Shown in pieces: positions 8,370-45,791 of a DNA stretch of 64,000 nucleotides (positions within the stretch are counted from its first letter, which is position 1; the number at the start of each line of letters is the position of its first letter). The stretch is from Candidatus Hydrothermia bacterium (GTDB lineage: Bacteria > Hydrothermota > Hydrothermia > UBA1063): the NCBI GenBank assembly GCA_049719805.1, contig JBNARF010000002.1:275495-339494 (forward strand), read 5' to 3'. The notes beneath the pieces were generated by a model, which was not told the origin of the DNA, searched no databases, and worked only from the letters and a program-made list of their open reading frames with translations. A program made the position numbers and the translations under genes.

Positions 8370-8734
8370 AAGAAGCCGAAAAAGCCCTGGCGAATTCCTA
8401 CGCTCCCTATTCTGGTTATAAAGTGGCTGCTGCCCTTTTGTGCGAAGATGGGAAGATTTATACAGGTGTTAATGTTGAGAATGCATCTTATGGTTTGACT
8501 GTTTGTGCGGAGAGAGTTGCTATTTTTAAAGCCGTCTCTGAGGGGTGTCGCGATTTTAAAATGATCGCCATTGTGGCTGAAAACGAGGAATTCCCCCCTT
8601 ATCCCTGCGGAGCCTGTAGGCAGGTAATGGCAGAGTTCAACAAGAACTTATTGATTGTTATTAAGGATCGGGGAAAGCTGGTTTGTGTTAAACTAAGTGA
8701 CCTTTTGCCCTATTCCTTTGATTTTAAAAAATAA
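8339..8734 (+). CDS. cdd: Cytidine deaminase
   Basis: Zinc-binding CAERVAIF and PCGACRQ motifs; ORF track starts at 8303 but the internal ATG at 8339 (MCGGEAEKLV...) gives the canonical length. Confidence 0.85.
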   Translation: MCGGEAEKLVKEAEKALANSYAPYSGYKVAAALLCEDGKIYTGVNVENASYGLTVCAERVAIFKAVSEGCRDFKMIAIVAENEEFPPYPCGACRQVMAEFNKNLLIVIKDRGKLVCVKLSDLLPYSFDFKK

Positions 8735-9744
8735 GCCAGTTGTCCGCAGGCTCCTTTGATATCCTGCCCGCGGGATTTTCTGAGGGTTACCGCTCTTTTC
8801 ACTTTTTTTCTAAGCTTTGTAAGGAAATGATTTACTTCTTCGTCAGATGGGCTTCTATAGGGGCTGTAGGGGTGAGGATTATAAGGAATTAAATTTATCT
8901 TTGATGGTATTTCGCTTGCGTAATCTGCCAGAGCATCAATATCCTCTTTGCTGTTGTTTACTCCTGGAATTAATATGTATTCAAAGGTGATCCACCTATG
9001 TTTCTTTTGGTAAAAATAAAGAAGTGCGTCTTTTAGTTCAGCAAGGTTGTATTTTTTTGCTATGGGCATAATTTTTTCCCGTTTTTCTTGTATAGCTGAG
9101 TTAAGAGAAACAGCAAGTTTGAACTGTTCGGGCTCGTCGGCTAATTTTATTATTCCGGGGACAATTCCTGCGGTGGAAATAGTGATTTTCCTTGCTCCAA
9201 TGCTGAAAGCGTGGTTGTTATTCAGTATTCTGGCACTTTCCATGACTTCCTCGTAATTAAGGAGCGGCTCACCCATTCCCATGTAAACTACATTGGTGAT
9301 TCTTTGTTTTACGTAATCTCTAACAATTCGGACCTGTTCGAGAATTTCGTGGAATTTTAAGTTTCTGGTATATCCCAGTTTTCCGGTTGCGCAAAATTCA
9401 CATTTTAGCGGGCACCCTACCTGGGAGGATACGCAGATAGTAGCCCTGTCTGCGTCAGGTATAAAGACAGATTCGACTCTGTCACCGTTTTCAAGTTCTA
9501 TCAAAAATTTTATAGAACCATCTATGGAATGGAGAATAGACAGGGGCTTGCTTCTTAATATTATGAAATTTTGTGTAAGGAAATCTCTAAGGGATTTGGG
9601 TAGGTCTGAAAATTCTTCAATGTTATTGGACCCTTTTTCCCATATCCAACGTAAAATCTGATTTCTCCTGTATAGAGGAATGTTATGTTCCTTTAAGATC
9701 TTCTCAATTTCTGAAGGCTTGAGGGCAATTAAATTGTTCGTCAT
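8710..9744 (-). CDS. rlmN: 23S rRNA (adenine2503-C2)-methyltransferase RlmN (radical SAM)
   Basis: 344 aa; radical-SAM CPLKCEFCATG motif and RlmN-like N-terminal domain. Confidence 0.9.
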   Translation of the reverse strand: MTNNLIALKPSEIEKILKEHNIPLYRRNQILRWIWEKGSNNIEEFSDLPKSLRDFLTQNFIILRSKPLSILHSIDGSIKFLIELENGDRVESVFIPDADRATICVSSQVGCPLKCEFCATGKLGYTRNLKFHEILEQVRIVRDYVKQRITNVVYMGMGEPLLNYEEVMESARILNNNHAFSIGARKITISTAGIVPGIIKLADEPEQFKLAVSLNSAIQEKREKIMPIAKKYNLAELKDALLYFYQKKHRWITFEYILIPGVNNSKEDIDALADYASEIPSKINLIPYNPHPYSPYRSPSDEEVNHFLTKLRKKVKRAVTLRKSRGQDIKGACGQLAYFLKSKE

Positions 9745-11441
9745 TCAGGAAGTTTATCGGGTTTTAACACCCACACCTCCATAGATGTTGGTAGTTCCTC
9801 TATGGTTATACGGGATTCCAGTAACTTTACTGGACATTTTGCGAGGCTTGTAAAGGCATCGACTTCTGCAAGGGGGAGGTCACAGGCATCGGTTTTGAAT
9901 CTCATGGGAATAACCACCAGAGGATCCAGCTGATAAACTACCTCCCATGCATCTTTTATGGGGAGAGTGTCATATCCACCCACTGGAATCATCAAAATAT
10001 CCACAGGTCTTCCTATCTCTCGAATCTGTTCCTTGGTTAGTATATGACCTAATGCACCAAGATGTGTAATCCTCACACCGGAAATTTCGATATTGAACAC
10101 CATGTTAGAACCTCTTACATTGCCTTCAGCGTTGTCGTGGAAAGTATGAATTCCCTTAAATCTGAGGAATGGAAACTCTGAGAAGACCTTTTCCCCTTCG
10201 ACTTCTACCAATTTAGGATTCCCTGGAATTTCTTTCCAGGCACCCTGGTCCATATGGGCATGGCTAACAGTAACGAAATCTGCTTCAATATCAATAGGTT
10301 TATATTTTATGGAATTATTAAGGGCCAGATGTTTGTAAGGGTCAGTAAGGATTTTAACTCCCCTAGATTCGATGACAAATGCGGCGTGCCCAAGATAGGT
10401 AATTGATATGGGAGTTTCTAGTTTTAAGGTTTTTCTCTCTGGTTTTTCAATTACTTCAACAGCTTCCTCAGTTTCTTTGTGTGGAATTGTAGAGGGAATA
10501 CTTTCTACATTTTGTGAGGGCGTTGTTTCAACTGCTGGCTCCTTTACTTCTATTTCTTCAACAACCCCCTCGTCTCTCGGGAAAAGATCGATGGTGGGTA
10601 TCTCAGGTTCTGGTGTTTCTGGTATTTTCTCTTCTTTCTCCATTACAGCGCTTGGTGATTCCGCGAGAATTTTGAGTTTTACTTCCAGTACCTCCAGGGC
10701 AGACTTAAGTTCTTCGATTTCTTTGAAGTATTTTTTCATTTCAAACCCCACCATTTCGGCTATTCTCTCTGAAAGAGGGGATTGTAACAGGAGCTCTTTT
10801 GAACTGGTTGCTACTATTTCTGAAATTTTGTCCTTCAGTTGATCCGTAATATATTCACTCTGGTTTTTAAGAAGTTCGAGTATTATCTTTTTGATTCCTT
10901 CTTCAGATTCGTAAAGAGCCTTTAACGTTTTTTCTATGTTTTTCTTTATATCTTTCTGGTTTTTGTCGAGGACTTCCTGGGATAACTTTTTTAGCTCTTC
11001 TTCAAAGATATGGGTTTCTTCTTCAATGAATCTTTTTATTCTCTCATCGAGGCTTTCTTTGATTTTTTCAGGATCTAATGCTTCTTTCACATGCTGGTCC
11101 AGTTGACTTTCGAATTCCTTGATGCGGGATTCAAAAGACGATATAAGATCGTTTTTTAACTTTTCGATTTCCTTTGAAATTTCATCGGTTTTTTCACTGA
11201 TTATCCGATCAACTTGCTTTCTTTGTTCTTCAATAGCGTTTCTTATAGATTCGTCAACGAGGTTCTTAATGTAATCCTCTGTTAATTTGTCGGAGTAACT
11301 TTTAACAGCTTCTTCGGCCCTGGACTTAGCTTGATTTAGGATGCCTTCTGTCTCTTCGAAGGCTTTCTGGAAGAGGCTTGATAAAGCCTCTTCCAGTTCC
11401 TTTGCTATTTTTTGCTTTAGTTCTTCCCAGTTAATTTCCAT
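9741..11441 (-). CDS. Fusion protein: N-terminal highly charged coiled-coil region (~330 aa) + C-terminal MBL-fold metallo-hydrolase domain
   Basis: 566 aa; E/K-rich heptad-like N-terminal region, Pro/Glu/Thr linker, then ITYLGHAAFVIE...SHAHMDQ metallo-beta-lactamase-fold motifs. Confidence 0.6.
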   Translation of the reverse strand: MEINWEELKQKIAKELEEALSSLFQKAFEETEGILNQAKSRAEEAVKSYSDKLTEDYIKNLVDESIRNAIEEQRKQVDRIISEKTDEISKEIEKLKNDLISSFESRIKEFESQLDQHVKEALDPEKIKESLDERIKRFIEEETHIFEEELKKLSQEVLDKNQKDIKKNIEKTLKALYESEEGIKKIILELLKNQSEYITDQLKDKISEIVATSSKELLLQSPLSERIAEMVGFEMKKYFKEIEELKSALEVLEVKLKILAESPSAVMEKEEKIPETPEPEIPTIDLFPRDEGVVEEIEVKEPAVETTPSQNVESIPSTIPHKETEEAVEVIEKPERKTLKLETPISITYLGHAAFVIESRGVKILTDPYKHLALNNSIKYKPIDIEADFVTVSHAHMDQGAWKEIPGNPKLVEVEGEKVFSEFPFLRFKGIHTFHDNAEGNVRGSNMVFNIEISGVRITHLGALGHILTKEQIREIGRPVDILMIPVGGYDTLPIKDAWEVVYQLDPLVVIPMRFKTDACDLPLAEVDAFTSLAKCPVKLLESRITIEELPTSMEVWVLKPDKLPE

Positions 11442-11444
11442 TTT

Positions 11445-12770
11445 TTATTTCTCCATCTTCCTGAAAAACTCTGAAATAATGTCCTCTAAGTCTGGCTTTC
11501 CAATTTCCTGCAATTCATATTTCACTCTTACATATGGTTTGTTGATTTTTAGTATTTTTCCGAGATTTATTGGCGTTGCAACGATTACGAGGTCTGCAGG
11601 TACTGCATTTATGGTATCTTCCAGTTCTTTAAGCTGCTTAGGTGAATATCCCATGGCCGGCAGAATTACTTCAAGTTGGGTGTATTTTTCGTAGGTTTCC
11701 TTGATGGAACCCACTGCGTAAGGCCTTGGATCCACTATTTCGGATGCGCCGTACTTCTCTGCAGCCACATAACCAGCACCATAAGCCATTTCACCGTGGG
11801 TCAATGTGGGTCCATCTTCGATTACCAGGACTCTTTTGCCTTTTATTTTTTCGTGGTCTTCCACAAATATAGGAGATGCCGCTTCTATTATGGTGGCGTG
11901 TTTGTTAGCGGATCTGGCATTCTCTCTGACTACCTGGATGTCTTCAGGATATGCTGTTTCTACCTTATTGATAATAATAACGTTGGCCATTCTTAGGTTT
12001 GTTTCACCTGGATGATATGTCACCTCATGTCCTGGCCTATGAGGGTCTGCTACTACAATATGTAGATCGGGTTTAAAGAACGGGAAGTCATTGTTTCCAC
12101 CGTCCCACAAAATTACATCAGCTTCCTGCTCTGCCTGTCTTAATATTTTCTCGTAATCAACCCCTGCGTAGACCACGTTGCCACGGTCAATGTGGGGTTC
12201 GTACTCTTCTCTTTCTTCAATGGTGCAGTTGTGTTTGTCCAGGTCTTCATGGGAAGCAAACCTCTGAACCACTTGCTTTGTAAGGTCGCCATAAGGCATA
12301 GGATGCCTGATTACCACGGTCTTTTTACCAAGTTTTTTCAGGATCTCTGCTACCTTTCTGGTAGTTTGACTTTTACCAGAGCCAGTTCTGACAGCGCAGA
12401 CAGATATTACAGGTTTTGAGGATTTGAGCATAGTGTGATCGGGACCCAGGAGCATGAAGCTGGCTCCAGCTGCCATGGCTCTTGATGCCCTATTCATTAC
12501 ATACTCATGGGAAACATCTGAATATGCAAAAACTACAAAATCAATTTTATGCTTTTTTATGAGCTCTTCGAGCTCATCCTCATGATATATGGGTATTCCG
12601 TCAGGATATAGCTTTCCTGCAAGCTCAGCAGGATATTTACGGCCAGCTATGTCCGGTATCTGTGTCGCGGTGAAGGCAACGACTTCATATTCTTCGTTAT
12701 CCCTAAAAAATACGTTGAAATTATGAAAATCTCTTCCGGCAGCCCCCATTATCAAAACTTTTTTCCTCAT
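11445..12770 (-). CDS. P-loop NTPase with N-terminal Rossmann-like domain; tentatively cyclic 2,3-diphosphoglycerate synthetase-like family (uncertain)
   Basis: 441 aa; N-terminal VLIMGAAGRDFHNF, internal MobB-like Walker A (CAVRTGSGKSQTT) followed by VVIRHP; family assignment from memory only. Confidence 0.3.
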   Translation of the reverse strand: MRKKVLIMGAAGRDFHNFNVFFRDNEEYEVVAFTATQIPDIAGRKYPAELAGKLYPDGIPIYHEDELEELIKKHKIDFVVFAYSDVSHEYVMNRASRAMAAGASFMLLGPDHTMLKSSKPVISVCAVRTGSGKSQTTRKVAEILKKLGKKTVVIRHPMPYGDLTKQVVQRFASHEDLDKHNCTIEEREEYEPHIDRGNVVYAGVDYEKILRQAEQEADVILWDGGNNDFPFFKPDLHIVVADPHRPGHEVTYHPGETNLRMANVIIINKVETAYPEDIQVVRENARSANKHATIIEAASPIFVEDHEKIKGKRVLVIEDGPTLTHGEMAYGAGYVAAEKYGASEIVDPRPYAVGSIKETYEKYTQLEVILPAMGYSPKQLKELEDTINAVPADLVIVATPINLGKILKINKPYVRVKYELQEIGKPDLEDIISEFFRKMEK

Positions 12771-12785: not shown

Positions 12786-14105
12786 TTAGATTTTCTTCAG
12801 GACTTCCCTGAAGATTTCCAGAGCTGTGTCAATTTCCTCTTTCTTGATGGTAAGTGCCGGACACCACCTGACGGTATTTGGTCCTGCACCCAAAAGTAGT
12901 AGCCCCCTGTAAAAACATTCATCAACAATTTTGTTTCTCAACTTTGGATCTGGCGTTTTTGAAGTTTTGTCTTTAACAATTTCAACACCTATCATAAGTC
13001 CTAAACCTCGAACATCACCAATGAATTCAAACTCGTCTTTTAGTTTCATTAGTTCTCCCTTCAAGTAGCTTCCCATATTTCTTGCATTTTCAATGAGTTC
13101 TTTTTCGAGGAGTTCAATGGTTTTTAGTGCCGCAACGCAGGAAACCGGGTTCCCACCAAAGGTGCTAGCATGGGTTCCTGACTCCCAATCCATAAGTGAT
13201 TTCCTTGCAATGGTAGCACCCAGAGGAAATCCTGAGGCTATTCCTTTCGCTACCGTTACAATATCGGGTATAACGTCAAAATGCTCAATAGCAAACATTT
13301 TCCCAGTCCTCCCCATTCCTGCCTGTACTTCGTCATCAATGAGAAGGATATCATATTTCTCCGCAAGCTTTTTAAGTTTCGGGAAGAAATCCATAGGTGG
13401 GACAACGTAACCACCTTCACCCTGTACAGGTTCAAAAATGAAGGCTGCCACCTCTTCAGGAGGTGCTATTGTAGTAAAAATGTAATTTTCAATATAACTA
13501 ATTATTGCATCACTAAGTTTATCGGGCTCGACCCCCATGAAGGGTCTGTATGGATTAGGATAAGGTACATGAACAACATGAGGAACTAAGGGACTAAAGT
13601 ATCTTCTATGAATGGCCTTTGAGGCCGAAACGCTCATAGTACCAAAGGTTCTGCCATGAAAGGCCCCTAAGAATGCTATGAAGATTGGCCTTTTTGTTTT
13701 GAATCTGGCGAGTTTTAAAGCGGCTTCGTTGGCTTCTGCACCGGAGTTTGAGAAAAATACTCTTTTGTTTTTGGAACCTGGTGCGATTTCAGCTAGCTTT
13801 TCTGCCAGTTCTATCTGATACGGATAGTAAAAATCTGTCCCCGACATATGAATGAGTTTTGTAACCTGTTCCTGAACCACTTTTACGATCTCTGGATGGC
13901 AGTGCCCTGTGGTAAGAACTGCAATTCCTGCAGCCATATCAAGAAATTTGTTCCCATCGACGTCGTAAACCCAGACTCCTTCTCCACGTTCAATCACTGC
14001 AGGGTATGTCCTGGTATAAGATGGAGAAATGTATTCTTCATCTCGTTTTAAAAATTCTTTTGCTTTTGGACCTGGAAGGGACGTTCTAATTTCCGGTTTT
14101 AACAT
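12786..14105 (-). CDS. Class III (PLP-dependent) aminotransferase, GabT/ArgD-like
   Basis: 439 aa; fold-type I class III features (LIDDEVQAGMGRTGKMFA with PLP lysine region TVAKGIASGFPLG). Confidence 0.8.
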   Translation of the reverse strand: MLKPEIRTSLPGPKAKEFLKRDEEYISPSYTRTYPAVIERGEGVWVYDVDGNKFLDMAAGIAVLTTGHCHPEIVKVVQEQVTKLIHMSGTDFYYPYQIELAEKLAEIAPGSKNKRVFFSNSGAEANEAALKLARFKTKRPIFIAFLGAFHGRTFGTMSVSASKAIHRRYFSPLVPHVVHVPYPNPYRPFMGVEPDKLSDAIISYIENYIFTTIAPPEEVAAFIFEPVQGEGGYVVPPMDFFPKLKKLAEKYDILLIDDEVQAGMGRTGKMFAIEHFDVIPDIVTVAKGIASGFPLGATIARKSLMDWESGTHASTFGGNPVSCVAALKTIELLEKELIENARNMGSYLKGELMKLKDEFEFIGDVRGLGLMIGVEIVKDKTSKTPDPKLRNKIVDECFYRGLLLLGAGPNTVRWCPALTIKKEEIDTALEIFREVLKKI

Positions 14106-14131: not shown

Positions 14132-14160
14132 ATTATAAATCAGCAAGTTTGAATAGTCAA
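14132..14160 (-). promoter_or_regulatory. Putative sigma70-type promoter for the minus-strand aminotransferase operon
   Basis: On the minus strand: -35 TTGACT (complement of 14155..14160), 17-nt spacer, -10 TATAAT (complement of 14132..14137), ~25 nt upstream of GGAGGA RBS and ATG at 14105. Confidence 0.5.
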
Positions 14161-21250: not shown

Positions 21251-23050
21251 ATGTTTAAGACAAGTGGACCAGATTTCAAAAAAATTAAGCTCGAAGCCCA
21301 AAAGCTCATTGGGCAGGGTAAATATCAGGAAGCGTTAAATAAGTTAATAGAACTAAGCAAGCAGATCAGCGACCCAGAAGTTTACAATTCTATTGGCGAC
21401 CTCTATATCAGGTTCCAGAATAATGAGCAAGCCCTTCAATATCTCGAAAAAGCATACAAAATCTACAGAGAGCAGGATTTCAGAGAGATAGCTATTTCTG
21501 TGGCTAAGAAAATTCTTCGTATCGAAAAGGATAGGCATGATATTTACATTGATTTGGTTGAAATGGAAATGGAGAACGGTAATGTGGATAAAGCCCTTGA
21601 TTGGGCATTGGAGTTTGTAAAGCTACCTAACCCTGATCCTAGCTATGTGGGTAAGCTTTTTAGATTATTAAATGATATAGCTAATGAAATTCAGGAGAAT
21701 ACAGAACAGGCGACAAAATTCGAGAGACTCTTCATTAAATTGCAAGAGCTTGCGGAGCAGCTCTCTTTAGCTACCCTTGAGTCAGGAATTGAAATTGCGG
21801 ATGCAAAGGAATTTTTTGATAAAGGAGATTTTGAAGAATACGGTGGATTTTTTGATGCGGGTCACCCAGCTGAAGAAGCGAAGATTAAGAAAACCACCAG
21901 AAAGAAGGAAGAGCAAGAACCTGTTGAAAAGATAGAATTTTTTGAACAAGAAGAGGAAGAGAAAAGTTTTATAACTGCTTCTGGATTTTCCAATTTTCTT
22001 GAAGTGGAGAAATCTGATAATATTGAAAAAACCGTTCTGGAAGAGAAACCTACATCTTCTCATAAGTCAGAAGAAAGTGTGAAATTCGAGATTTCTGAGA
22101 AAACTGAGTTTGTAGAAGAAACTGAAGAAAAATTGGATTTGTTACCCCCTGAATCCAAGAGCGTCTCGGATAAGAGGCCGCCATCTGAGCAGTTTAAAAC
22201 AGTTTTAGAGGAAGAGCTTCCAGAGGAAATCGAGGCAGAACAAAAGGTATGGGAATCATTGACATCAAAAAAAATCACCGAACAGAAGCCGGTTCCTGAA
22301 GTAACAAGCAGTAAAGAATCTTCAGCTGAAGAGGAGGAACCTGAAAAACTCAGGGTGGCTTTTGACGAGTATGTGAAACTGAAAGAAGAGGAGAAAAAAG
22401 TCACTTTTGATGAGGTTGTAAGCGAGAAATTTAAGAGTGAATCAAAGGAAGAACCGAAACTGGAGCAAAAACCGACTGAGGGGGGAGTTCTCGAAAAAGT
22501 TGTAAAAGAGTCAACAACTGAGAAATTCTCCAAGGAGTTTAAGTCTTCCGTTTTTCAGGAAAAAGAAGCAGCACCCGCTGTAGTGCAGAAACCTAGAGAA
22601 TTTAGTGAAGCTATGTCAGATTTACTAAAGATTATAAGAGATTTCAAAGAAGATCTTGTTGGTTTAGAGACGTGGCCTTACTCTTCCGATTCTCCCTTTG
22701 AAGTTGCAAAAGAATATTACGAAATGAAGCTCTATCAGCCAGCAGTCGAAGAATTCCAGAAGCTTCTAGGAGACCCCAGATACAGGCTTCAATCAATGAC
22801 TTATTTAGGAAAGATATTCTATGAAAGGGGTGAGTTAGATTTTGCCGAGGCAATACTCAGGAAGGCTATCGAAGAAGCTGGATATATGGAGAAGGAATCC
22901 ATTGAGGCTTACTATTATCTTGCCCTAACCCTTGAGGCGCTTAAGCGTTTTATGGAAGCAAAAGAATTATATTTGAGGGTGTATATATTCGATTCAAGTT
23001 TTAGGGATGTTGCTGCAAAAGTAATGACATTAAGGAGTAAAGCACTATGA
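21251..23050 (+). CDS. Hypothetical protein: TPR-like helical termini flanking a long acidic/Lys-rich low-complexity region
   Basis: 599 aa; TPR-like N- and C-terminal segments, central ~300 aa rich in E/K/S/T; stop overlaps the next gene's start (ATGA). Confidence 0.45.
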   Translation: MFKTSGPDFKKIKLEAQKLIGQGKYQEALNKLIELSKQISDPEVYNSIGDLYIRFQNNEQALQYLEKAYKIYREQDFREIAISVAKKILRIEKDRHDIYIDLVEMEMENGNVDKALDWALEFVKLPNPDPSYVGKLFRLLNDIANEIQENTEQATKFERLFIKLQELAEQLSLATLESGIEIADAKEFFDKGDFEEYGGFFDAGHPAEEAKIKKTTRKKEEQEPVEKIEFFEQEEEEKSFITASGFSNFLEVEKSDNIEKTVLEEKPTSSHKSEESVKFEISEKTEFVEETEEKLDLLPPESKSVSDKRPPSEQFKTVLEEELPEEIEAEQKVWESLTSKKITEQKPVPEVTSSKESSAEEEEPEKLRVAFDEYVKLKEEEKKVTFDEVVSEKFKSESKEEPKLEQKPTEGGVLEKVVKESTTEKFSKEFKSSVFQEKEAAPAVVQKPREFSEAMSDLLKIIRDFKEDLVGLETWPYSSDSPFEVAKEYYEMKLYQPAVEEFQKLLGDPRYRLQSMTYLGKIFYERGELDFAEAILRKAIEEAGYMEKESIEAYYYLALTLEALKRFMEAKELYLRVYIFDSSFRDVAAKVMTLRSKAL

Positions 23051-24288
23051 TGAAGAAGGATTTAAAAGTTGAAGAAAAACCTCAAGGTAAGGTTACCTTC
23101 GTGGAGCTTCTTGAAAAGAGCGGCATCATTTCCAAAGAGGCCATTAAAGCTGCCCTTGCTGAGCAATGGGAGAGAGGGGGAACTTTAGAAGAGATTCTCG
23201 TTGAAAAGGGATACTTAAACGAGGAACAATTTGTTAAATTTATACTTGATAAATTTCCTATGCTACATTATGTGAGCTTGAAAGATATAGATATTGATAC
23301 TGAAGCTGTTGAACATATCCCAGCCAGAATTGCTAAGAAGTACTTACTGATCCCGGTTAGAAAGAAGGGGAAATCCTTAGCTGTGACCATGGCAAATCCC
23401 TTAAATAAAGAAATGCTCATCGAACTGAAAAACGTTACAGATTTGAAAATTAGACCATTTGTTTCAAAGATTTCGGAGATAAAGGAAGCCATTGCTAAGT
23501 ATTACGGAGAGATTGGAGAAGCAGAGGAAATTCCAGAACCTTTCACTGCAGATAAAGTTAAGAAAGAGATTGGAGTCCTGATAGCAAAGGATAAAACCTT
23601 TGAAAATTTCGTGGTCGGGGAAACTAATAAGCATGCCTATTTGCTTTGCGCAGATATTGCAAAAACTCGAGGAGTTGGAGAGAAGCGGCTTTTCATATGG
23701 GGGCCAGAAGGTACGGGGAAAACTCATCTTCTTCAAGCTATTGCGAACTACCTTTTAGAGAATGAAGCTCTAAGGAGATTCATATACATTGATGCTATAA
23801 AGTTTGTTACAACCCTGAAGGGTTTTAAGTCAGAGCGCGAGGTGGATCGGTATTTAAAAATTCTTACAGATCTTGATTTACTTCTCTTTGATGACTTAGA
23901 CTTTCTAATAGGTAAGGATTATGCTCAAGAGGCTTTATTTTCAGTGCTTTCTGAATTAAGAATGACCGATAAACAAGTGGTAATATCCTCATCATATCCG
24001 ATGAAGGATATGCCTACTTTGAGCGTAAAAGTAAAATCTTTAATTTCTGAATTCCTTGTAGTTGGAATGGATGAGCCCTCCGTGGAGCTTAAAAGGGACA
24101 TTGTAAAAAGATTTTTGCAGGAAGAATCACTTCCCTCTGGTGTAGTTGAGTTTCTTGTAAAGAAGCCTGGTTTAACAGTTAAAAAGATTGAATCTATTGT
24201 TCGCACATTGCTCACTTACAAGAGGATAGGAGAGAAAATTGATGAAAATCTTTTAAATAAGGTGGTTTCAGGGATTATTGAAAGTTAA
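23047..24288 (+). CDS. Fusion protein: N-terminal GspE-N (T2SSE_N/MshEN-like) domain + DnaA/Hda-like AAA+ ATPase domain, no DnaA domain IV
   Basis: 413 aa; residues ~15-155 match the GspE/PilB N-terminal domain pattern; residues ~180-400 match DnaA domain III: FVVGETNKHAY, Walker A WGPEGTGKTHLL, Walker B LLLFDDLDFL. Confidence 0.6.
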   Translation: MMKKDLKVEEKPQGKVTFVELLEKSGIISKEAIKAALAEQWERGGTLEEILVEKGYLNEEQFVKFILDKFPMLHYVSLKDIDIDTEAVEHIPARIAKKYLLIPVRKKGKSLAVTMANPLNKEMLIELKNVTDLKIRPFVSKISEIKEAIAKYYGEIGEAEEIPEPFTADKVKKEIGVLIAKDKTFENFVVGETNKHAYLLCADIAKTRGVGEKRLFIWGPEGTGKTHLLQAIANYLLENEALRRFIYIDAIKFVTTLKGFKSEREVDRYLKILTDLDLLLFDDLDFLIGKDYAQEALFSVLSELRMTDKQVVISSSYPMKDMPTLSVKVKSLISEFLVVGMDEPSVELKRDIVKRFLQEESLPSGVVEFLVKKPGLTVKKIESIVRTLLTYKRIGEKIDENLLNKVVSGIIES

Positions 24289-24302
24289 AAGGGGGTTTTA
24301 AA

Positions 24303-25922
24303 ATGGCTTTGTTAGGTCAACTGGGTTTGGGAGCTAAGGGCAAAACGAAAGGGAGCATAGTAGCCCTTGATATAGGTTCAAAATATGTAAAAGCTGCGTT
24401 ATTTGAGAGAAGGAAGAACGAGTTAGTGTTTAGGGGACTAGCTGTGGAAAAGGTCCCACCCGATGTGATCCTGGGTAAAGATATAATCGACCGGCAGGTT
24501 CTGGTAGATAAGATAAGGGATGCTTACTCCAAGCTTGGCACTGAAGTTAGAGATGTGGTGGTGAACGTAGCCGGTGGTGAGGTGAAAACTAAGGCCTTCG
24601 TTATACCTGACCTAAAGAAAAAAGAAAAGATAGCGGAGGCAGTGGACTGGAAGATAAAGGATGAGTTGCACGTGGATCCTACCGAGATAGTCAGGGATTA
24701 CGAACTTCTTGGAAAAAGCGAAGTGAGTGAGTCTCTGGATATGCTTGTGGGTACTGCCAAGTTGAGTGTGGTTTATGATATCATGGATATTGTGAGGGCT
24801 GCAAGACTTGAGCCTATAATGGTTACAACCGATCTCCTGGCCCTTTGGAGAGTTATTGAGGCCCTCGATTTAAAAGACCTTCCTGGAGATAACGTATTTT
24901 TCCATCTGGGTTACGAAGTGGGACTCCTAATTCATGTTAAAGATGGCAAGATCCAACAGATGATCGAAGTCCCAGCGGGTTTAAAATCATATGTGGATAA
25001 CTTATCCAGATTCTTTGACCTAAGAGTAGAAGAGGCCGAAGAAATTGTTATAAATGGCCCTACTTCCGGTATTGATAAAGTTTCTTTTGATGAGACTGTT
25101 GATTCGCTCCATGAGAGGTTTCTTTCGCCTGAAAAATATATACCTTTACTTGGTGAGCCAGGTGTTAAATTTAATTTATACATCTCTGGTGGTGGAAGTA
25201 AATTATACGGTGTAAGTGCTTTTGTTAAGAATAAGTATGGTGTCGATCTTAAATTCATAGATGTCTCAACCTTGTTTGCAGTTGAAGAACCTGTAAAGGG
25301 TATCAAAGATTATTTAAACTTACTAACTATAGTAATTGGTGATGCACTTCATTATTTCAGGAAAGGGCACAAGATAAACTTAATGCCTCAAGAAGCAGGG
25401 ATGGAAGCAGTAGCGGTTGAGGGTGAGGTTTCTTTATTACCTCATGTGGTGGGGGCACTCTCAATATGGCTTGTAATTGTCATTGTAATTGCTGTGCTGT
25501 CCATCGGAACCTCAAGGAGGATTTCAGGGCTTAAGAATCAAATAGCCAGGTTACAGGCTGAAGAGGTGGAACTTCAGAGAAAAGCTGACGAAATCAGGGG
25601 ATTTAAACAAGAAATTGAAGACGCCAGGCGAAAATTGGATCTTATTCAGCAGCTTCAAATGGGTAGAACGGTTTATGTAAGACTTCTCGATGAAATAAAC
25701 AGGGTTCTTCCCTCCGGGTGCTGGCTCGAGTCTGTAAGAAAAAGTGGTAGTTATCTTAATGTTTCTGGAGGAGCCCTTTCAAATATTAGAATATCTCAAT
25801 TTATGTCTAATCTCAAAAAGTCAGATGTAGTTGATTCTGTATACCTCCAGTCCATTGAAGTCTCTGGGGGTAGTCAACAAGAAAGATATGCAAGGTTTGA
25901 AATTAATGTTAAACTGAAATAA
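24303..25922 (+). CDS. pilM: Type IV pilus assembly protein PilM fused to PilN-like TM/coiled-coil/periplasmic region
   Basis: 539 aa; actin-like PilM N-terminus (IVALDIGSKYVKAA), then TM helix (ALSIWLVIVIVIAVLSIG), coiled coil and periplasmic domain as in PilN. Confidence 0.65.
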   Translation: MALLGQLGLGAKGKTKGSIVALDIGSKYVKAALFERRKNELVFRGLAVEKVPPDVILGKDIIDRQVLVDKIRDAYSKLGTEVRDVVVNVAGGEVKTKAFVIPDLKKKEKIAEAVDWKIKDELHVDPTEIVRDYELLGKSEVSESLDMLVGTAKLSVVYDIMDIVRAARLEPIMVTTDLLALWRVIEALDLKDLPGDNVFFHLGYEVGLLIHVKDGKIQQMIEVPAGLKSYVDNLSRFFDLRVEEAEEIVINGPTSGIDKVSFDETVDSLHERFLSPEKYIPLLGEPGVKFNLYISGGGSKLYGVSAFVKNKYGVDLKFIDVSTLFAVEEPVKGIKDYLNLLTIVIGDALHYFRKGHKINLMPQEAGMEAVAVEGEVSLLPHVVGALSIWLVIVIVIAVLSIGTSRRISGLKNQIARLQAEEVELQRKADEIRGFKQEIEDARRKLDLIQQLQMGRTVYVRLLDEINRVLPSGCWLESVRKSGSYLNVSGGALSNIRISQFMSNLKKSDVVDSVYLQSIEVSGGSQQERYARFEINVKLK

Positions 25923-25935
25923 AGGAGGTTTAATT

Positions 25936-26385
25936 ATGAAGAGGTATTTTTACCTTATAATTGCAGTAGTCCTTGGTCTTGTGCTTTCATCCTGTGAAAA
26001 GGTGGATAAAGACGCTACACTGACAGGTCGGGTAGGGTATGCCATTGCGTATATCGATACGGTTCATCAGGAAACCACCTTTGTTTTTCAAAATGCAGCG
26101 GGTGCAAGGGTTTATTTAATGGGTGATGATGCTTCACCTAATCCTTATACAGGTCCGGTACTTGAAACCACTACTGATTCCACCGGAACTTATCAGTTTG
26201 TCGTAAATGCTGTGACTGAGCCCAGTACCTCTTTTATCCCTACTAACAATTTTGGGATTAAGATTCAGGTGTTCTACTTTGATAATATAATTGGCCCAGC
26301 CTATGGAGAACTTAGCGGATATCACTTTACGCCCGGGAAAGACGCCACACTTCCAATAATATATCTTAAGCGGCAAACTCAGTAG
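25936..26385 (+). CDS. Small lipoprotein, beta-sandwich-like (carboxypeptidase-regulatory-like); unknown function
   Basis: 149 aa; signal peptide with lipobox LVLSSC; TGTYQF-type motif; AGGAGG RBS; sits between pilMN and pilO. Confidence 0.5.
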   Translation: MKRYFYLIIAVVLGLVLSSCEKVDKDATLTGRVGYAIAYIDTVHQETTFVFQNAAGARVYLMGDDASPNPYTGPVLETTTDSTGTYQFVVNAVTEPSTSFIPTNNFGIKIQVFYFDNIIGPAYGELSGYHFTPGKDATLPIIYLKRQTQ

Positions 26386-26394
26386 GAGTGAAAA

Positions 26395-26985
26395 ATGGAA
26401 AAATTAAAATCTCCGGCAGTAATATGGCTTTTAGGAGTAATTATATACGTATTGACCTTTATGTTCCTCTGGAATTCCATGTATGCCTCCAAATCCAGGG
26501 AACTCAAGACAGTAGAAGCAAAATATAAGGAGCAATACTCTAGAGTTCAGAATCTTCGTGAATTTGTAAAGGATTATGATAGAATAATAAGAGAAAAGGA
26601 CTCTTTGCTTGCCCTGTGGGAGGAGACTCAGAGGTTTTTGCCTCAGGAAGAAAATATGGACACATGGCTTTCTCAGATTACTGGTATGGCCATTAGTTCA
26701 GGGGTTCAAATATACAGTTTTAAGCCACAGTCACCCAGACAGCAGGAATTATATCGAGAGTATCCCATTGTGATGAAGGTAAGGGGTGGCTTCCATGAGC
26801 TTGGTACATTTATAAGCTTTATAGCCAACTCAGAGAGGATAATGAGTGTGGAGAATCTTCAACTACAACGTGTATCAGGACAAGAAATAGAGAGTGGACA
26901 AACGGTTGATGCTGAATTGACGGTTATATGTTATGTTTATAGTCCAGTGCAGGGGGCCGGAAAACCATCGGGAGGTTCACGATGA
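26395..26985 (+). CDS. pilO: Type IV pilus assembly protein PilO-like
   Basis: 196 aa; N-terminal TM helix, coiled coil, periplasmic domain; position between pilMN and pilP/pilQ. Confidence 0.55.
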   Translation: MEKLKSPAVIWLLGVIIYVLTFMFLWNSMYASKSRELKTVEAKYKEQYSRVQNLREFVKDYDRIIREKDSLLALWEETQRFLPQEENMDTWLSQITGMAISSGVQIYSFKPQSPRQQELYREYPIVMKVRGGFHELGTFISFIANSERIMSVENLQLQRVSGQEIESGQTVDAELTVICYVYSPVQGAGKPSGGSR

Positions 26986-27770
26986 GAAAAATTGTATTTT
27001 TTAATTTTTTATTTATTACATTATTGCTTAGCACTTTGCGAGCCCAGAATATGATAACTTCTTATTCTGTTCAAGAATCCGATGAAGGAGTTAGCATTAT
27101 TCTCGAGTTCTCTGAAGGGGTACCTCAGTATAGAGATTTTACCCTTGCAAATCCTCCCAGGATAGTGGTAGATTTGATTAACGTGGGGTATTCCTTAGGG
27201 GGAAAGCTTTTCGTAGTGGGAAAAGGTGGAGTGGAGCGAATAAGAGGAGCTCAGTACCAGAGAGAGCCGGAACTTGTTGCAAGAATTGTTCTTGATGTAG
27301 ATGAGTTTAGAAGCTACTCCATAGTAACATCGGAGAAATCCCTTATAATAAAAGTAGGTGGTATATCCAGCGTACCCTATTCCTCTTCTGCGCCAGGCGA
27401 AGCTGCTCCAGCACCTACCGAGAAAACCACTACAGTAAAAACTGAAGAAAAACAATACAAATTGGAAGTTGGGGAGAAGTACTTCTATTCTTCAAGGGGT
27501 AAAAAAGACCCCTTTAAGCCAGAAGCATTTGGTGAAGAGGAAGAACTTTTAAATGTTAGCGAGGCAAAACTCCTTGGGATTATAAAAAGCGATGAAGGAA
27601 ATGTAGCCCTTCTTCAGGATAGAAGGGGAGTAGGCTACGTTTTGAAAGAAGGAGACAGGGTCAGAAACGGTCGGGTAGTAAAGATTGAATCCGACCGTGT
27701 AGTTTTCGCTATTGTAGATTTTGGTTTTACAAGAAGGGTTGAATTAAAATTGGAGGAAGAAAATAAATAA
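26982..27770 (+). CDS. Secreted AMIN-domain protein with C-terminal PilP-like domain
   Basis: 262 aa; signal peptide; AMIN-like motifs (PPRIVVDLINV, ARIVLDVDE); Pro/Ala/Thr linker; C-terminal KDPFKP...LLGII...VKIESDRVVF resembles PilP. Confidence 0.5.
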   Translation: MRKIVFFNFLFITLLLSTLRAQNMITSYSVQESDEGVSIILEFSEGVPQYRDFTLANPPRIVVDLINVGYSLGGKLFVVGKGGVERIRGAQYQREPELVARIVLDVDEFRSYSIVTSEKSLIIKVGGISSVPYSSSAPGEAAPAPTEKTTTVKTEEKQYKLEVGEKYFYSSRGKKDPFKPEAFGEEEELLNVSEAKLLGIIKSDEGNVALLQDRRGVGYVLKEGDRVRNGRVVKIESDRVVFAIVDFGFTRRVELKLEEENK

Positions 27771-27784
27771 AAGGAGGTTTAGTA

Positions 27785-28969
27785 ATGGGGATTTTTAGAA
27801 AAGCGCTTCTTATCCTGCTTACGGTGAGTGTAATATCTGCTCAAGAAGCCCGAATCACCATGAGTGTAGAACAGGCAGATATAAAAACCGTATTGAGAGC
27901 CTTTGCAGAAGTTGGGAGAGTTAATATAATTACAACACCGTCCGTAACTCAGAAAGTTACTTTTAACATAAAAGATGTACCCTGGAGACTGGCTCTAAAA
28001 TCCTTGCTTGATGCCTATGGGCTTGCAATGATTGAAAGTGAGGGACTCATCACCATTATGACTCAACAGGAGTTTGCAAACTTAAAAACAGCAGCGGACC
28101 TGGATATTAAAGTACTTAAAGTACGTTATGCCGATGCCCGAAAAGTTGCAGAGGTCTTAAAGTCGCAGTTATCTCCAAGAGGAGATATTAAGTTGGATGA
28201 AAGCTCTAACGCCCTTATTGTCACGGATCTCAGAGTAAACCTGTACAGAGTGGAGGATCTCCTCACCCAGGTAGATAAGCCTTACCCCCAGGTTATGATA
28301 AAAGGAAGAATAGTGGAAGTGGACTACAATGAGTCAAGAAGGCTTGGGTCAGAGCTTAAAGCAATTAGGTTTGGAAATCCCGGTTTCGAAGCCTCACCCT
28401 ATACTGCTGGAGGACTTGAACCTGAAAACGCAACTTATTTAACGGTGAATTATCTCGGACCTAATGCTGCAAGAATTGAGGCAGCTATTGATGCTCTTGA
28501 GGGCAAATCAAAAGCCAATACCATTTCTGAGCCTAAAATCATGGTCCTTGACAATGAAAAGGCATCTATATATTCGAAGATAAGGGTGCCGGTTATTTCA
28601 AGGGATATGGCCGGAAATACTGTCGTTCAGTTTGAAGAAACCGGTATAAGCCTTGAAGTAACACCTCATATTATTCCAGATGGCAAAGTGGTTCTACACA
28701 TTAAAACAGAGACTGGGGACCTCACCGGATATTCTGCTGCTGGTCAACCAATAACCTCCAAGAGAGGAGCAGAGACGAAGGTTACAGTACCTGATGGAGA
28801 AACTGTATTAATTGGTGGTGTTATCATTGACAAGGATAAGAAAGCTAATTCAGGCCTTCCTTTGCTTTTGAGAATCCCCATTTTAGGCCAGATTTTTGGT
28901 CGTCATTCTGTAGAAAAAAGTAAGGCTGAGATTTTGATATTCTTAACACCCACTGTGGTGAGAGAATGA
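27785..28969 (+). CDS. pilQ: Type IV pilus secretin PilQ (minimal form)
   Basis: 394 aa; signal peptide, secretin N-domains, C-terminal secretin signature (GETVLIGGVI...PLLLRIPILGQIFG...ILIFLTPTVV). Confidence 0.85.
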   Translation: MGIFRKALLILLTVSVISAQEARITMSVEQADIKTVLRAFAEVGRVNIITTPSVTQKVTFNIKDVPWRLALKSLLDAYGLAMIESEGLITIMTQQEFANLKTAADLDIKVLKVRYADARKVAEVLKSQLSPRGDIKLDESSNALIVTDLRVNLYRVEDLLTQVDKPYPQVMIKGRIVEVDYNESRRLGSELKAIRFGNPGFEASPYTAGGLEPENATYLTVNYLGPNAARIEAAIDALEGKSKANTISEPKIMVLDNEKASIYSKIRVPVISRDMAGNTVVQFEETGISLEVTPHIIPDGKVVLHIKTETGDLTGYSAAGQPITSKRGAETKVTVPDGETVLIGGVIIDKDKKANSGLPLLLRIPILGQIFGRHSVEKSKAEILIFLTPTVVRE

Positions 28970-29526
28970 AAATAAGATTTTTCAATCACAAGAAGGGCCT
29001 CACATTAGTTGAGGTCCTTCTTGTGATTTTTATTATCAGTATCTTAGTAGCAATACCTTTCTGGGGGGGGACTCAATATATAGCCCGCAACAGGCTAAGA
29101 AGTGAAGCGGTTAAGATTAAATCCTTTACCGAAAACGAGAGAACCAATGCTATGGCCATGACCACAAGACGTGCCATAGAGTTCAATGGGTGGGATGTAA
29201 CAATTTACGTGGAAGATCTATCGCGCCCTTTGCCTAATCTGGATTCTATTGTTGCCACTTACCCCAATTACTTTAGCTCTAAAATAAATTTCGGCGGGCT
29301 TCCGGGTGCGACGGCTCTAAGGGGAGGTTCCATTGACTCCGATGGTGTAATGTTTGGGAGTTCTCAGAATAATAACAGGTTGGTCTTCACAGCCTTTGGA
29401 CTTGTTGAGAATCCCGGAGAGCTATATATAAATGATGGACGAAATCTAATGTGTATCGCTGTTAACGGATTTGGACAAGTTAGAATATATAGATGGACAG
29501 GGGGAAGCTGGAATGAAGTTAAATAA
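28966..29526 (+). CDS. Prepilin-type minor pilin/pseudopilin (FimU/GspH-like)
   Basis: 186 aa; class III signal peptide KKG/LTLVEVLLVIFIISILVAI with Glu at +5. Confidence 0.65.
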   Translation: MKIRFFNHKKGLTLVEVLLVIFIISILVAIPFWGGTQYIARNRLRSEAVKIKSFTENERTNAMAMTTRRAIEFNGWDVTIYVEDLSRPLPNLDSIVATYPNYFSSKINFGGLPGATALRGGSIDSDGVMFGSSQNNNRLVFTAFGLVENPGELYINDGRNLMCIAVNGFGQVRIYRWTGGSWNEVK

Positions 29527-29935
29527 AAAAGGTTTTTCTCTTATTGAGCTTCTCGTGGCTCTTTCTATACTGGCTATTGGACTCCTCGGTATAATTCCCC
29601 TTGCTATCACCACTATACGCCTCAATACCTATCAGAATCAAATGCTTAATGCTAAGTATTTAGCAGAGAGGCAGGCGGAATTTTTAAGAAGTATTACGTT
29701 TACTGCACCTGAACTCGCAAATGATAACGACAACAATGACCTATACGATACCGCAAACCCTGACCACATTCTTGCTACAACCATTGAAGGGATCACATAT
29801 AATGTGATGTGGAACATTGTGGATGATTCTGCCGGGACTAGAACTATTAATATAATAGTTCAGTGGGTTACGCCACGAACTGGAGAAACAAAAAACTATA
29901 ATATTACCCTCGTAAGGAGTAGCTATGAAATTTAG
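29513..29935 (+). CDS. Prepilin-type minor pilin (PilV-like)
   Basis: Prepilin motif KKG/FSLIELLVALSILAIGLLG; chosen start ATG 29513 (MKLNKKGF...), ORF track starts at 29471; overlaps upstream gene by 14 nt. Confidence 0.65.
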   Translation: MKLNKKGFSLIELLVALSILAIGLLGIIPLAITTIRLNTYQNQMLNAKYLAERQAEFLRSITFTAPELANDNDNNDLYDTANPDHILATTIEGITYNVMWNIVDDSAGTRTINIIVQWVTPRTGETKNYNITLVRSSYEI

Positions 29936-30827
29936 AAGAGCTATAACACTCTTGGAACTTATTGTGGCTTTGGGCATATTATCTGTGCTTCTTACTAGTG
30001 TTTTTATAGTATATAGAAATCAAATGAGGACAGCCACCACTCAGCAAAGTATTTCCGTTCTCCAGACTGATATTCAGCAGGCTTTTAACATTCAAAAGTG
30101 GGATATGCTGATGAGCGGGTATGGTGTTAGTGCAAATGTTGCTCCCATATGGAGCATAAATAAGACAAATGCCCCTGATTCTTTAATATTACGGAGCACG
30201 GGTTTTCTTATTGGTGGTACCACCCGCTGGAGTTACGTTATGGATGCAATGACGGGGACTGAACTTATCGTTGGGCGCTGGAATGACGAAAGGGAAGATA
30301 TTCATGTTGGTGACGTGATTGTAATAATGACTGATAGAAAGGGTCAGATAGCTCCACCTGTTTCTGTCACAGCTCGCGAGGCGATGACTTATAACAATCA
30401 GGATGCGTACAGGCTGACCTTAAGTGGGAATGTTCAAACGGCTCAGGGTAACTTTGTCTTTGTGGTTCCTGGAGGTCAATTTCAAACTGTAGTTTATTGG
30501 GTTAGAAATGACACGCTGTTTCGGGGGAATGAGCCCTTTTTAACGGGAGTTGAAGATTTTCAGGTATCTCACTGGGTGGACTTAAATGGCAATGGGATAG
30601 AGGATGTGGGGGAGAGGGTTATGAATCCTTCTGGTGTAAGTAATTTTACGGGTTTCTTAAGGTCTACAAGGGTTAGTCTTGTGCTTTTAGGTCCTGTGGA
30701 TAGAGATTATACATTCCCTGATAATCAAATTACTGTGGAAGATCATACCTATACAATTACCGGGTCTGCGAGGAATAGAAGGCGCAGGTTTTATACCATA
30801 GAAGTAAAAGCGAGGAATATAAGATGA
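29925..30827 (+). CDS. Prepilin-type minor pilin (PilW-like), atypical Ala at -1
   Basis: 300 aa; N-terminus MKFRRA/ITLLELIVALGILSVLL with Glu at +5 but Ala instead of Gly before the cleavage site. Confidence 0.55.
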   Translation: MKFRRAITLLELIVALGILSVLLTSVFIVYRNQMRTATTQQSISVLQTDIQQAFNIQKWDMLMSGYGVSANVAPIWSINKTNAPDSLILRSTGFLIGGTTRWSYVMDAMTGTELIVGRWNDEREDIHVGDVIVIMTDRKGQIAPPVSVTAREAMTYNNQDAYRLTLSGNVQTAQGNFVFVVPGGQFQTVVYWVRNDTLFRGNEPFLTGVEDFQVSHWVDLNGNGIEDVGERVMNPSGVSNFTGFLRSTRVSLVLLGPVDRDYTFPDNQITVEDHTYTITGSARNRRRRFYTIEVKARNIR

Positions 30828-31273
30828 AAAAAGGAGTTGCTTTAATAACGGTGATTCTCGTAGTTGCGTTTCTTGTGGTTTTAGGTGGAATAACAGCCTA
30901 CATGGTCCAGAGAAGTTTGAGAATTACCGGGACCTTCAGAAGGGCTCTATCCACCTTTGAGGCTGCGGAAGGTGGTATTGAGATAGGTGTGAATGAGATA
31001 TGGTCTGCTTCAGAAGAAGGAAGATCACTGGGAACGATAACGAGGAACGTAGGACAAAGGTCAGTAACTGTAACACCATCTCGTCTTTTTGTGATGACGG
31101 AAAGGGGTGGCTCATTAGAGTTTGCTGCGGCATACGAAGGTGTTGGAAGGGGAGTAGGAGGGGGTGGTGCTGCAATATTTTATAGAATCTTATCTTTATC
31201 CCGCGGTGGACCTGAAGATAGGGTGGAACTTGAAGTTTTATATAGGAAAGTTGTAGGTATAATAGCACAATAA
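30824..31273 (+). CDS. PilX-like minor pilin / pilus assembly protein
   Basis: 149 aa; N-terminal hydrophobic helix (GVALITVILVVAFLVVLGGITAY) lacking Glu5, as in PilX. Confidence 0.5.
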   Translation: MKKGVALITVILVVAFLVVLGGITAYMVQRSLRITGTFRRALSTFEAAEGGIEIGVNEIWSASEEGRSLGTITRNVGQRSVTVTPSRLFVMTERGGSLEFAAAYEGVGRGVGGGGAAIFYRILSLSRGGPEDRVELEVLYRKVVGIIAQ

Positions 31274-31284
31274 AAGGAAAAGGG

Positions 31285-34857: not shown

Positions 34858-34870
34858 AAGGGGGTAGAGC

Positions 34871-35227
34871 ATGTTTGCCTTTATAATTTTAATTTCCATC
34901 TTGACTCAATCAGGGATTCAGGTGACCCAGGGGGTGATTAGTACCCCCAGGGTCCTGCAAAAAGAATATCTAACTGATGAAGAGATGAGGGCCCTTCAAA
35001 ATACCATAGGCGGAGTTTTTATGGGGGTTTCTGATGATTCAAACTACATTTTCGTGAACGAAAAATACATAAAAATCGATAAGAGAACATTCAATTTCAA
35101 GAATTTGCCTGCTGTTGGCGAGGATGTCTTTATACGATTGGAAGAACGTGGGAAGGATAAAATCGGAGTATTCTGCTCTAATAACCTGGATGATGCTGTT
35201 TATTACAAAAAGGGACTTTTTAAATGA
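34871..35227 (+). CDS. Hypothetical small secreted/membrane-anchored protein
   Basis: 118 aa; N-terminal hydrophobic segment; no recognised motif. Confidence 0.3.
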   Translation: MFAFIILISILTQSGIQVTQGVISTPRVLQKEYLTDEEMRALQNTIGGVFMGVSDDSNYIFVNEKYIKIDKRTFNFKNLPAVGEDVFIRLEERGKDKIGVFCSNNLDDAVYYKKGLFK

Positions 35228-45659: not shown

Positions 45660-45670
45660 TAACTTTGCCT

Positions 45671-45744
45671 GCCCCCGTAGCTCAGTAGGATAGAGCGGCG
45701 GTTTCCTAAACCGCAGGCCAGAGGTTCGAATCCTCTCGGGGGCA
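45671..45744 (+). tRNA. tRNA-Arg (anticodon CCT)
   Basis: Hand-folded cloverleaf: acceptor GCCCCCG/CGGGGGC, D-stem GCTC/GAGC, anticodon stem GCGGT/ACCGC with loop TTCCTAA, T-arm AGAGG-TTCGAAT-CCTCT, discriminator A; no encoded CCA. Confidence 0.9.
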
Positions 45745-45791
45745 TTGTTTGACTGTTTTATTTTTTAGATTTATAATTTACAAACTTTCAC

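Follow-up and report, generated by a model that had tools for sequence, protein, structure and literature searches.

Does a thermophilic bacterium encode an enzyme for an archaeal thermoprotectant, and does the unusual protein encoded next to it act as its partner? These questions are raised by two adjacent minus-strand genes in a 64,000-nucleotide stretch of a Candidatus Hydrothermia bacterium genome (GenBank assembly GCA_049719805.1, contig JBNARF010000002.1, positions 275,495 to 339,494), hereafter the window. The upstream gene (11445..12770) encodes a 441-amino-acid (aa) P-loop protein, and the downstream gene (9741..11441) encodes a 566-aa protein in which N-terminal helices and an acidic linker are fused to a TM0207-type metallo-β-lactamase (MBL) domain. 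A first-pass annotation of this DNA likened the 441-aa protein to cyclic 2,3-diphosphoglycerate synthetase (cDPGS) and treated the two genes as an adjacent pair of unusual enzymes. We arrive at another explanation, which as a whole we consider quite likely: the 441-aa protein is orthologous to the arginine synthetase ArcE (an ATP-forming arginine deiminase) and has a catabolic role, and the fusion protein is restricted to its lineage and lies beside arcE by synteny.

The 441-aa protein belongs to the ArcE family

Both open reading frames (ORFs) were recovered as first described, with the 566-aa ORF beginning 3 bp past the stop of the 441-aa ORF. The 441-aa protein starts with MRKKVLIMGAAGRDFHNF and carries its P-loop, CAVRTGSGKSQTT, at residues 125–137 and VVIRHP at residues 152–157; the Walker A motif itself (AVRTGSGKS, residues 126–134) is encoded at 12369..12395 of the minus strand. 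The Rossmann-like N-terminus proposed earlier was borne out by the AlphaFold model (predicted local distance difference test [pLDDT] 91, predicted template modeling [pTM] score 0.90), which opens with a β-α-β unit. Since no family scored above threshold in Pfam and NCBIfam scans, the protein was identified through its homologs and the literature.

The 441-aa protein is 75% identical to a Thermococcus homolog (P0118) over 434 aa with zero gaps. The Thermococcus matches (P0118–P0120, 450 aa) begin with MAEKKRRRVII or MTEKKKKRVII and end with EKCEKLKKKE. Translation of the published primers dTK2200inF and dTK2200inR, which the supplement to a 2026 follow-up paper describes as lying inside the target gene, gives MAEKKKKRVLI and KNCEKLKK* as the termini of T. 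kodakarensis TK2200. According to the original report (Michimori et al. 2024, PMC11032458), TK2200 (ArcE) catalyzes Arg + ADP + Pi ↔ Cit + NH3 + ATP and was formerly annotated as hypothetical, with homologs annotated as GTPases. The report describes ArcE homologs as widespread among bacteria and as bearing only weak similarity to cDPGS. The bacterial taxa named there include Coprothermobacter and Caldisericum, and two of our own matches (P0098 and L017) agree with these. The authors accepted arcE homologs at a BLASTP E-value of ≤1e-10, and with 75% identity the gene in the window counts as arcE.

The wider family is remarkably conserved. Members from Chloroflexota, Caldisericota, Acidobacteriota, Thermoplasmatota, Asgard archaea, and Thermococcus are 65–75% identical, and the family alignment shows no variation at R128, T129, G130, G132, K133, or S134. 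A Foldseek search with the model retrieved LpxK (4EHY) at an E-value of 3e-8, and LpxK is also the relative reported for TK2200. By sequence, then, the 441-aa protein belongs to the ArcE family, and the ortholog in the window would be expected to have arginine synthetase activity.

Genomic context points in the same direction. We clustered the ORFs flanking arcE in 80 genomes or loci, none from Thermococcus, and assigned identities by NCBIfam matches above cutoffs. Arginine-tRNA ligase (ArgS) adjoined arcE in 27 of the 80 loci, always directly upstream; ornithine carbamoyltransferase (OTC) did so in 11, and carbamate kinase (CK) in 6. These genes often overlap arcE or sit within 6 bp of it, as CK does in one WOR-3 locus (L010). 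All three recurrent neighbors are linked to arginine, which provides independent contextual support for the ArcE identity.

The 27 argS–arcE loci lie in the range L015–L077 and are mostly from Anaerolineae/Chloroflexota, with spacing that is usually overlapping or very short; in L053, argS occupies 4033–5811 and arcE 6001–7287. The portions of the ArcE papers at hand name arcB and arcC as neighbors, and we noted no mention of argS in them. The linkage hints at a role in arginine supply or homeostasis in Chloroflexota.

A probable catabolic route from arginine

Upstream of arcE lies a gene for a 439-aa class III (omega-) aminotransferase (12786..14105, minus strand; PF00202, E = 1e-127; NF004426, 684 bits against a cutoff of 552). 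Among solved structures, it is best matched by 7VNO from Pyrococcus horikoshii (E = 8e-149; 436 aa aligned at 53.4% identity), which scored 499 bits, compared with 399 bits for an Ala/Ser racemase and 304 bits for a broad-specificity racemase. We take 7VNO to be PH1423, an equation that the literature consulted did not confirm. PH1423 and TK2101 are characterized ornithine aminotransferases, and in T. kodakarensis TK2101 functions downstream of both ArcE and OTC. The gene in the window thus encodes a probable ornithine aminotransferase, with ornithine as its presumed substrate, and the position of such an enzyme beside arcE fits a route from arginine through citrulline and ornithine to glutamate semialdehyde.

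The two genes are probably transcribed together from one promoter. A candidate sigma-70-like promoter (TTGACT-17-TATAAT) followed by an AAGGAGG ribosome-binding site lies at 14132..14160 on the minus strand, ahead of the transaminase gene. With 11 of 12 consensus matches, it is the best candidate in the region, where such sites occur as often as expected from shuffled sequence. A terminator scan returned no sense-strand terminator inside the four-gene block formed by the transaminase gene, arcE, the fusion gene, and rlmN. A near-consensus promoter with a ribosome-binding site and the lack of a sense-strand terminator make cotranscription plausible.

In the catabolic direction, ArcE of this thermophilic, presumably peptide-feeding bacterium would convert arginine to citrulline with a yield of ATP, OTC encoded elsewhere would split citrulline into ornithine and carbamoyl phosphate, and the transaminase would then carry ornithine to glutamate 5-semialdehyde. 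The opposite direction is the strongest of the alternatives that we weighed, although we consider it unlikely. ArcE would then make arginine from citrulline, NH3, and ATP, and the transaminase would supply ornithine from glutamate semialdehyde, together giving a short, acetyl-free biosynthetic route. The ArcE work describes a reversible reaction that, given a supply of citrulline, sustains arginine synthesis in vivo; it also places the equilibrium toward citrulline and ATP (K = 10.1). The position of arcE directly after the arginyl-tRNA synthetase gene in the 27 loci mentioned above would suit a biosynthetic enzyme, as would the fact that no CK was found in the 64-kb window. On the other side, arcE stands beside the catabolic arcC in other lineages, and the sole cultured WOR-3 relative is a 70°C heterotroph that requires yeast extract and is thus a feeder on complex organics. 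Direction cannot be read from sequence, and we favor catabolic flux as the probable direction.

The 566-aa protein is a rare fusion with an altered metal site

The 566-aa protein has three parts. Residues 1–262 (10656..11441, minus strand) are E/K-rich amphipathic helices, which AlphaFold places at residues 5–52, 55–121, 124–178, 180–212, and 223–261. Glu makes up 19% of this region and Lys 14.5%, the net charge is −17, and the hydrophobic periodicity (3.65–3.8 residues plus ~10.75 residues) was reached by none of 300 shuffles. Core residues 135–175 are conserved. No transmembrane segment was detected in residues 1–262, and the helices, scanned against Pfam at E ≤ 10, produced no more than composition-driven hints of apolipoprotein, YtxH, and phasin families, all below threshold. 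Residues 263–338 (10428..10655, minus strand) form an acidic, Pro/Glu/Thr/Val-rich disordered linker (25% Glu, 14.5% Pro, net charge −13), with pLDDT below 50 across residues 261–337; it is rich in indels and varies in length among relatives. Residues 339–566 (9744..10427, minus strand) are the MBL domain, which matches Lactamase_B_3 (PF13483) at 148.8 bits against a cutoff of 24 over residues 347–513. The earlier description of a ~330-aa E/K-rich coiled coil fused to an MBL domain therefore stands for the MBL domain but overstates the coiled coil, which resolves into ~260 residues of amphipathic helices followed by a 75-residue disordered linker.

That the architecture had seemed unfamiliar is explained by its rarity and restriction to one lineage. 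A word-indexed search returned 31 homologs of the fusion, all from WOR-3/Hydrothermia. When 1.84 billion representatives were searched exhaustively with HMMER, 4,264 relatives of the MBL domain were retrieved, among which the whole architecture occurs in only three full-length clusters at 50% identity (P0133, P0150, and P0153). Nearly all of the other MBL relatives are stand-alone proteins of ~215 aa.

Two further architectures were seen among the relatives. P0152 (735 aa) is a secreted-looking triple tandem repeat of the TM0207-type MBL domain, and in P0155 (380 aa) the MBL domain is preceded by a hydrophobic stretch and, at the N-terminus, by a region that by eye resembles FHA. Modular fusions of the small MBL core seem to arise readily.

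The MBL domain comes closest to Thermotoga maritima TM0207 (1VJN), both by sequence (E = 4e-37, 34% identity) and by superposition (TM-score 0.89, root mean square deviation 2.5 Å). Its motifs HAHMDQ, HLGALGH, and IPMR correspond to HQHFDH, HLGDLGH, and IPMH of TM0207. H394, H396, D398, and H460 are invariant. Three canonical ligands of the second metal site are exchanged: Q399 takes the place of the last His in HxHxDH, A463 that of the Asp in HLGDLGH, and R514 that of the His in IPMH. The domain in the window accordingly does not carry the complete binuclear set (HxHxDH ... H ... D ... H). The Q399/A463/R514 state is present in 21 of 25 fusion sequences, which constitute the clade of the window protein. 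The canonical H/D/H ligands are kept in the sister clades, in P0148–P0151 and P0153, in TM0207, and in the stand-alone relatives, indicating that the fusion is older than the loss of metal site 2.

Even after this ligand loss, the MBL domain of the fusion is highly conserved. We infer a mononuclear derivative, or one with less metal, to which Arg514 may lend positive charge. The protein as a whole joins presumably self-associating amphipathic helices, by way of an acidic disordered tether, to a small MBL domain that in this clade keeps metal site 1. Such a protein might act in the cytoplasm as an oligomeric or scaffold-tethered mononuclear hydrolase, or as a substrate-binding derivative, with a small anionic ester or phosphoester as its putative target.

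Synteny rather than partnership may place the fusion beside arcE

The first-pass annotation had correctly named the neighbors of the pair as co-directional genes, with the class III aminotransferase upstream and rlmN downstream. The latter (8710..9744, minus strand; dual-specificity RNA methyltransferase; TIGR00048, 352 bits against a cutoff of 290) is the last co-directional gene of the block and shares a 4-bp overlap with the fusion gene. Such spacing is ordinary here: across 52 co-directional pairs in the window, the median distance was −4 bp, 34 pairs were no more than 5 bp apart, and many were ATGA-type 4-bp overlaps. With genes packed this tightly, adjacency or a 3-bp gap tells little about function, and we set aside the gap as evidence of coupling after this spacing control. 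The order transaminase–arcE–fusion–rlmN was kept in all nine distinct loci of relatives examined, including L084, where the fusion protein is only 42% identical and the upstream flank differs. Synteny extends to the flanking genes cdd, cvpA, metallophos, ubiA, and coaE, the downstream flank included, so the conserved order of the block may merely reflect relatedness.

A conserved mRNA hairpin stands near the start of the fusion gene. It lies at 11367..11396 on the minus strand, at nucleotides +46 to +75 of the fusion gene and ~50 nucleotides past the arcE stop, and has a 13-bp stem, a 4-nucleotide loop, and a predicted free energy of −25.7 kcal/mol. It is kept in relatives whose proteins are only 56–61% identical, where compensatory substitutions in the stem also replace both encoded residues, and equivalents with stems of 12–13 bp were found in L081, L085, and L088–L091. 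In nine sequences, a small sample that includes the one from which the structure was derived, pairing held in 83.8% of cells compared with 72% in shuffles (matched by 0 of 500), 7 of 13 pairs had changed on both sides (2 of 500), and the covariation score was 0.331 compared with 0.158 (0 of 500); slid controls collapsed. L087 has a degenerate form of the hairpin, and L084 has none. An intrinsic terminator was considered and rejected, as no U-tract follows on the sense strand and the terminator scan flagged the antisense strand only. The hairpin may instead be an mRNA 3′-end stabilizer or a processing site that separates transaminase–arcE expression from fusion–rlmN expression.

These observations bear on whether the fusion protein is an arginine-pathway partner that processes citrulline or carbamoyl phosphate, or scaffolds ArcE, and for that reason occupies the slot after arcE. 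We judge this improbable. Such a partner would account for the order kept in all nine distinct loci, and it would take the slot that OTC or CK fills in other phyla, neither of which was found in the 64-kb window. Yet spacing is uninformative, the flanks are conserved likewise, no MBL gene lies beside arcE in the 80 other genomes, the nearest relatives are stand-alone 215-aa proteins without an assigned function, and the conserved hairpin would, if anything, uncouple expression of the two genes. An extension of the same idea, which we regard as no better than a long shot, is that transaminase, ArcE, and MBL protein form a self-contained, OTC-independent module for arginine degradation, in which ArcE would yield citrulline and ATP, the tethered MBL protein, with Arg514 in place of a metal ligand, would turn citrulline straight into ornithine, the transaminase would pass ornithine on to glutamate semialdehyde, and the hairpin would set the expression ratio. 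We know of no gene assigned so far to a citrullinase of this kind. We prefer to explain the position of the fusion gene by clade-level synteny in a very compact genome, with no role in the arginine pathway implied. That the adjacent pair is a functional unit was not established, given that 3-bp spacing is the norm and that the pairing is absent from the 80 sampled genomes of more distant organisms.

Several observations weigh against the overall reading of an ArcE ortholog in catabolism with a fusion protein beside it by synteny. The link to TK2200 itself consists of 19 primer-derived residues and the description given by the authors. The genes pyrB/pyrI, which neighbor arcE in TK and TON, were not found within 9 kb of arcE in Thermococcus sp. 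M39, a result that is uninformative. OTC, CK, and ArgS were not found in the 64-kb window. Among the 120 best matches to a WOR-3 CK, none could be assigned to this lineage, but relatives of the query saturate that list, and it does not show that CK is absent. Among the 80 sampled genomes that are more distant, neither the transaminase gene nor the fusion gene ever adjoins arcE, which for the transaminase makes its coupling to ArcE clade-specific. Finally, the fixed position of the fusion gene between arcE and rlmN across the clade, L084 included, could mean a functional link.

The existing names of the family appear to be misannotations

Public records (NCBI and UniRef) give the 441-aa protein and its homologs the name "cyclic 2,3-diphosphoglycerate synthase", as for P0001, P0118, and P0119 (for example, WP_167885888.1 and WP_297125843.1), and some homologs the name "GTPase". 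The second name would make the 441-aa protein a G3E/SIMIBI-type GTPase or metallochaperone resembling CobW, HypB, or UreG, which we consider highly improbable. HypB, UreG, and MeaB do appear among its structural neighbors, and residues 267–271 (INKVE) resemble an NKxD motif. The match to cobW (PF02492) is weak, at 17.7 bits against a gathering cutoff of 20.7 and over residues 235–295 only, and G3E proteins lack the additional N- and C-terminal domains. The genomic context is arginine metabolism rather than metallocenter assembly. TK2200, moreover, catalyzes a defined metabolic reaction and prefers ADP, with GDP giving 8.4% relative activity.

The first name has a structural basis. The closest solved structure to the 441-aa model is cDPGS (8ORU; Foldseek E = 2e-17, probability 1.00, 16% identity, TM-score 0.44), and the two proteins have a two-domain fold in common, indicating kinship at the superfamily level. 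Sequence similarity is confined to one part. With phmmer, the 441-aa protein matched solved cDPGS at E = 9e-4 over residues 210–322 only, and a profile of 34 family members matched at E-values of 2e-9 to 1e-6 over ~110 residues covering the Walker B region only. In the Methanothermus fervidus enzyme, P-loop residues K145 and R146 (GTGKRIGKT) are ligands of 2,3-diphosphoglycerate (2,3-DPG; PDB 8ORK/8ORU; PMC10690619). These positions align to T129 and G130 (AVRTGSGKS) of the 441-aa protein, which are invariant in the 34 family members. Two further cDPGS residues, E45 and K46 from the partner subunit's N-terminal domain, fall in a region where the N-terminal domains align at 1.2 bits, too weak to trust.

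The resemblance noted in the first-pass annotation thus holds for the superfamily, where 8ORU is the top Foldseek match, and fails for the family. The profile and structure comparison that it called for revealed replacement of the 2,3-DPG ligands, and its suggestion of a thermoprotective-solute enzyme in a bacterium gives way to membership in the characterized ArcE family. That the 441-aa protein is a true cDPGS making thermoprotectant in a bacterium is scarcely credible and largely refuted: the public name, the structural match, and a thermophile lineage would favor it, but the ligand residues are T/G throughout the family, identity is 16% to cDPGS and 75% to orthologs of an arginine/citrulline-using enzyme, and the family adjoins OTC, CK, and ArgS genes. 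Because the protein matches none of the models in the NCBIfam release that was searched, the public name lacks the backing of a curated HMM. The misannotation of ArcE orthologs as cDPGS, those of Thermococcus included, appears to be systematic.

Other features of the window

A 79–81-aa ORF without a Pfam match lies between the cytidine deaminase gene and cvpA and is kept in the locus of every relative (for example, L081:10160–10399, L084:9980–10219, and L085:10093–10338); its equivalent in the window is at ~8130–8370. A long co-directional cluster on the plus strand (23047..35778) encodes several proteins with prepilin-like N-termini (for example, KKGLTLVEVLLV, KKGFSLIELLVAL, and RRAITLLELIVAL) and a 1,190-aa protein; judged from its translations, it resembles a locus for a type IV pilus or a type II secretion-like system. 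Genes for tRNA-Arg(CCT) and tRNA-Trp(CCA) lie at 45670..45867 on the plus strand, just upstream of a cluster at 46–64 kb that, judged from its translations, looks like a nusG/ribosomal-protein/rpoB-rpoC/translation-factor cluster.

Significance and comparison with known systems

The interest of this locus lies mainly in correcting a misannotation that is propagating. ArcE is an enzyme family known since 2024 and already reported as widespread in bacteria. Orthologs named as cDPGS mislead searches for cDPG-based thermoprotection and reconstructions of energy metabolism in uncultured thermophiles, whereas the reading proposed here would add a substrate-level, ATP-yielding step of arginine catabolism to the WOR-3/Hydrothermia lineage. 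The linkage of arcE to an ornithine-type transaminase in this clade and to argS in Chloroflexota broadens the known contexts of the enzyme. The fusion protein is genuine and rare, a variant of a known fold confined to its lineage, with no evidence yet for a new system. It offers a natural case in which the second metal site of an MBL domain was replaced after the domain joined a helical tether, and could aid the study of MBL active-site repurposing.

Compared with T. kodakarensis ArcE, the 441-aa protein has ~75% full-length identity to Thermococcus orthologs, a similar length (441 compared with 450 aa), a common P-loop, an LpxK-like structural neighbor, and a family neighborhood of arcB and arcC in other genomes. 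It differs in its host, a bacterium of WOR-3/Hydrothermia, and in adjoining an ornithine-type transaminase and an MBL fusion rather than arcB or arcC. With cDPGS it has in common an N-terminal α/β domain, an LpxK-like P-loop kinase domain, and the Walker A and Walker B regions; low identity (16%), a TM-score of 0.44, the exchange of K145/R146 for T/G, a different chemistry, and a different genomic context set the two apart.

At the level of the pathway, the closest parallel is the arginine deiminase pathway (arcA-arcB-arcC), which likewise proceeds from arginine through citrulline to ornithine and carbamoyl phosphate and whose partner enzymes OTC and CK are encoded beside arcE elsewhere. Here, the first step would be carried out by an unrelated P-loop enzyme that keeps the energy as ATP instead of hydrolyzing the substrate, and the partner genes are not clustered in the window. 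The Thermococcales ornithine delta/omega-aminotransferases (PH1423 and TK2101) are the counterparts of the class III transaminase, which is 53% identical to 7VNO; the close paralogs in this subfamily are amino acid racemases, and in Thermococcus the arcE and transaminase genes are not adjacent. For the fusion protein, the reference is TM0207, a structural genomics protein without an assigned function, together with the PF13483/UPF0173 small MBL hydrolases (TM1162 and Igni18). All have the compact ~215-aa MBL core, to which the protein in the window adds a 338-residue helical and acidic N-terminal extension and, in its clade, the replacement of three ligands of metal site 2.

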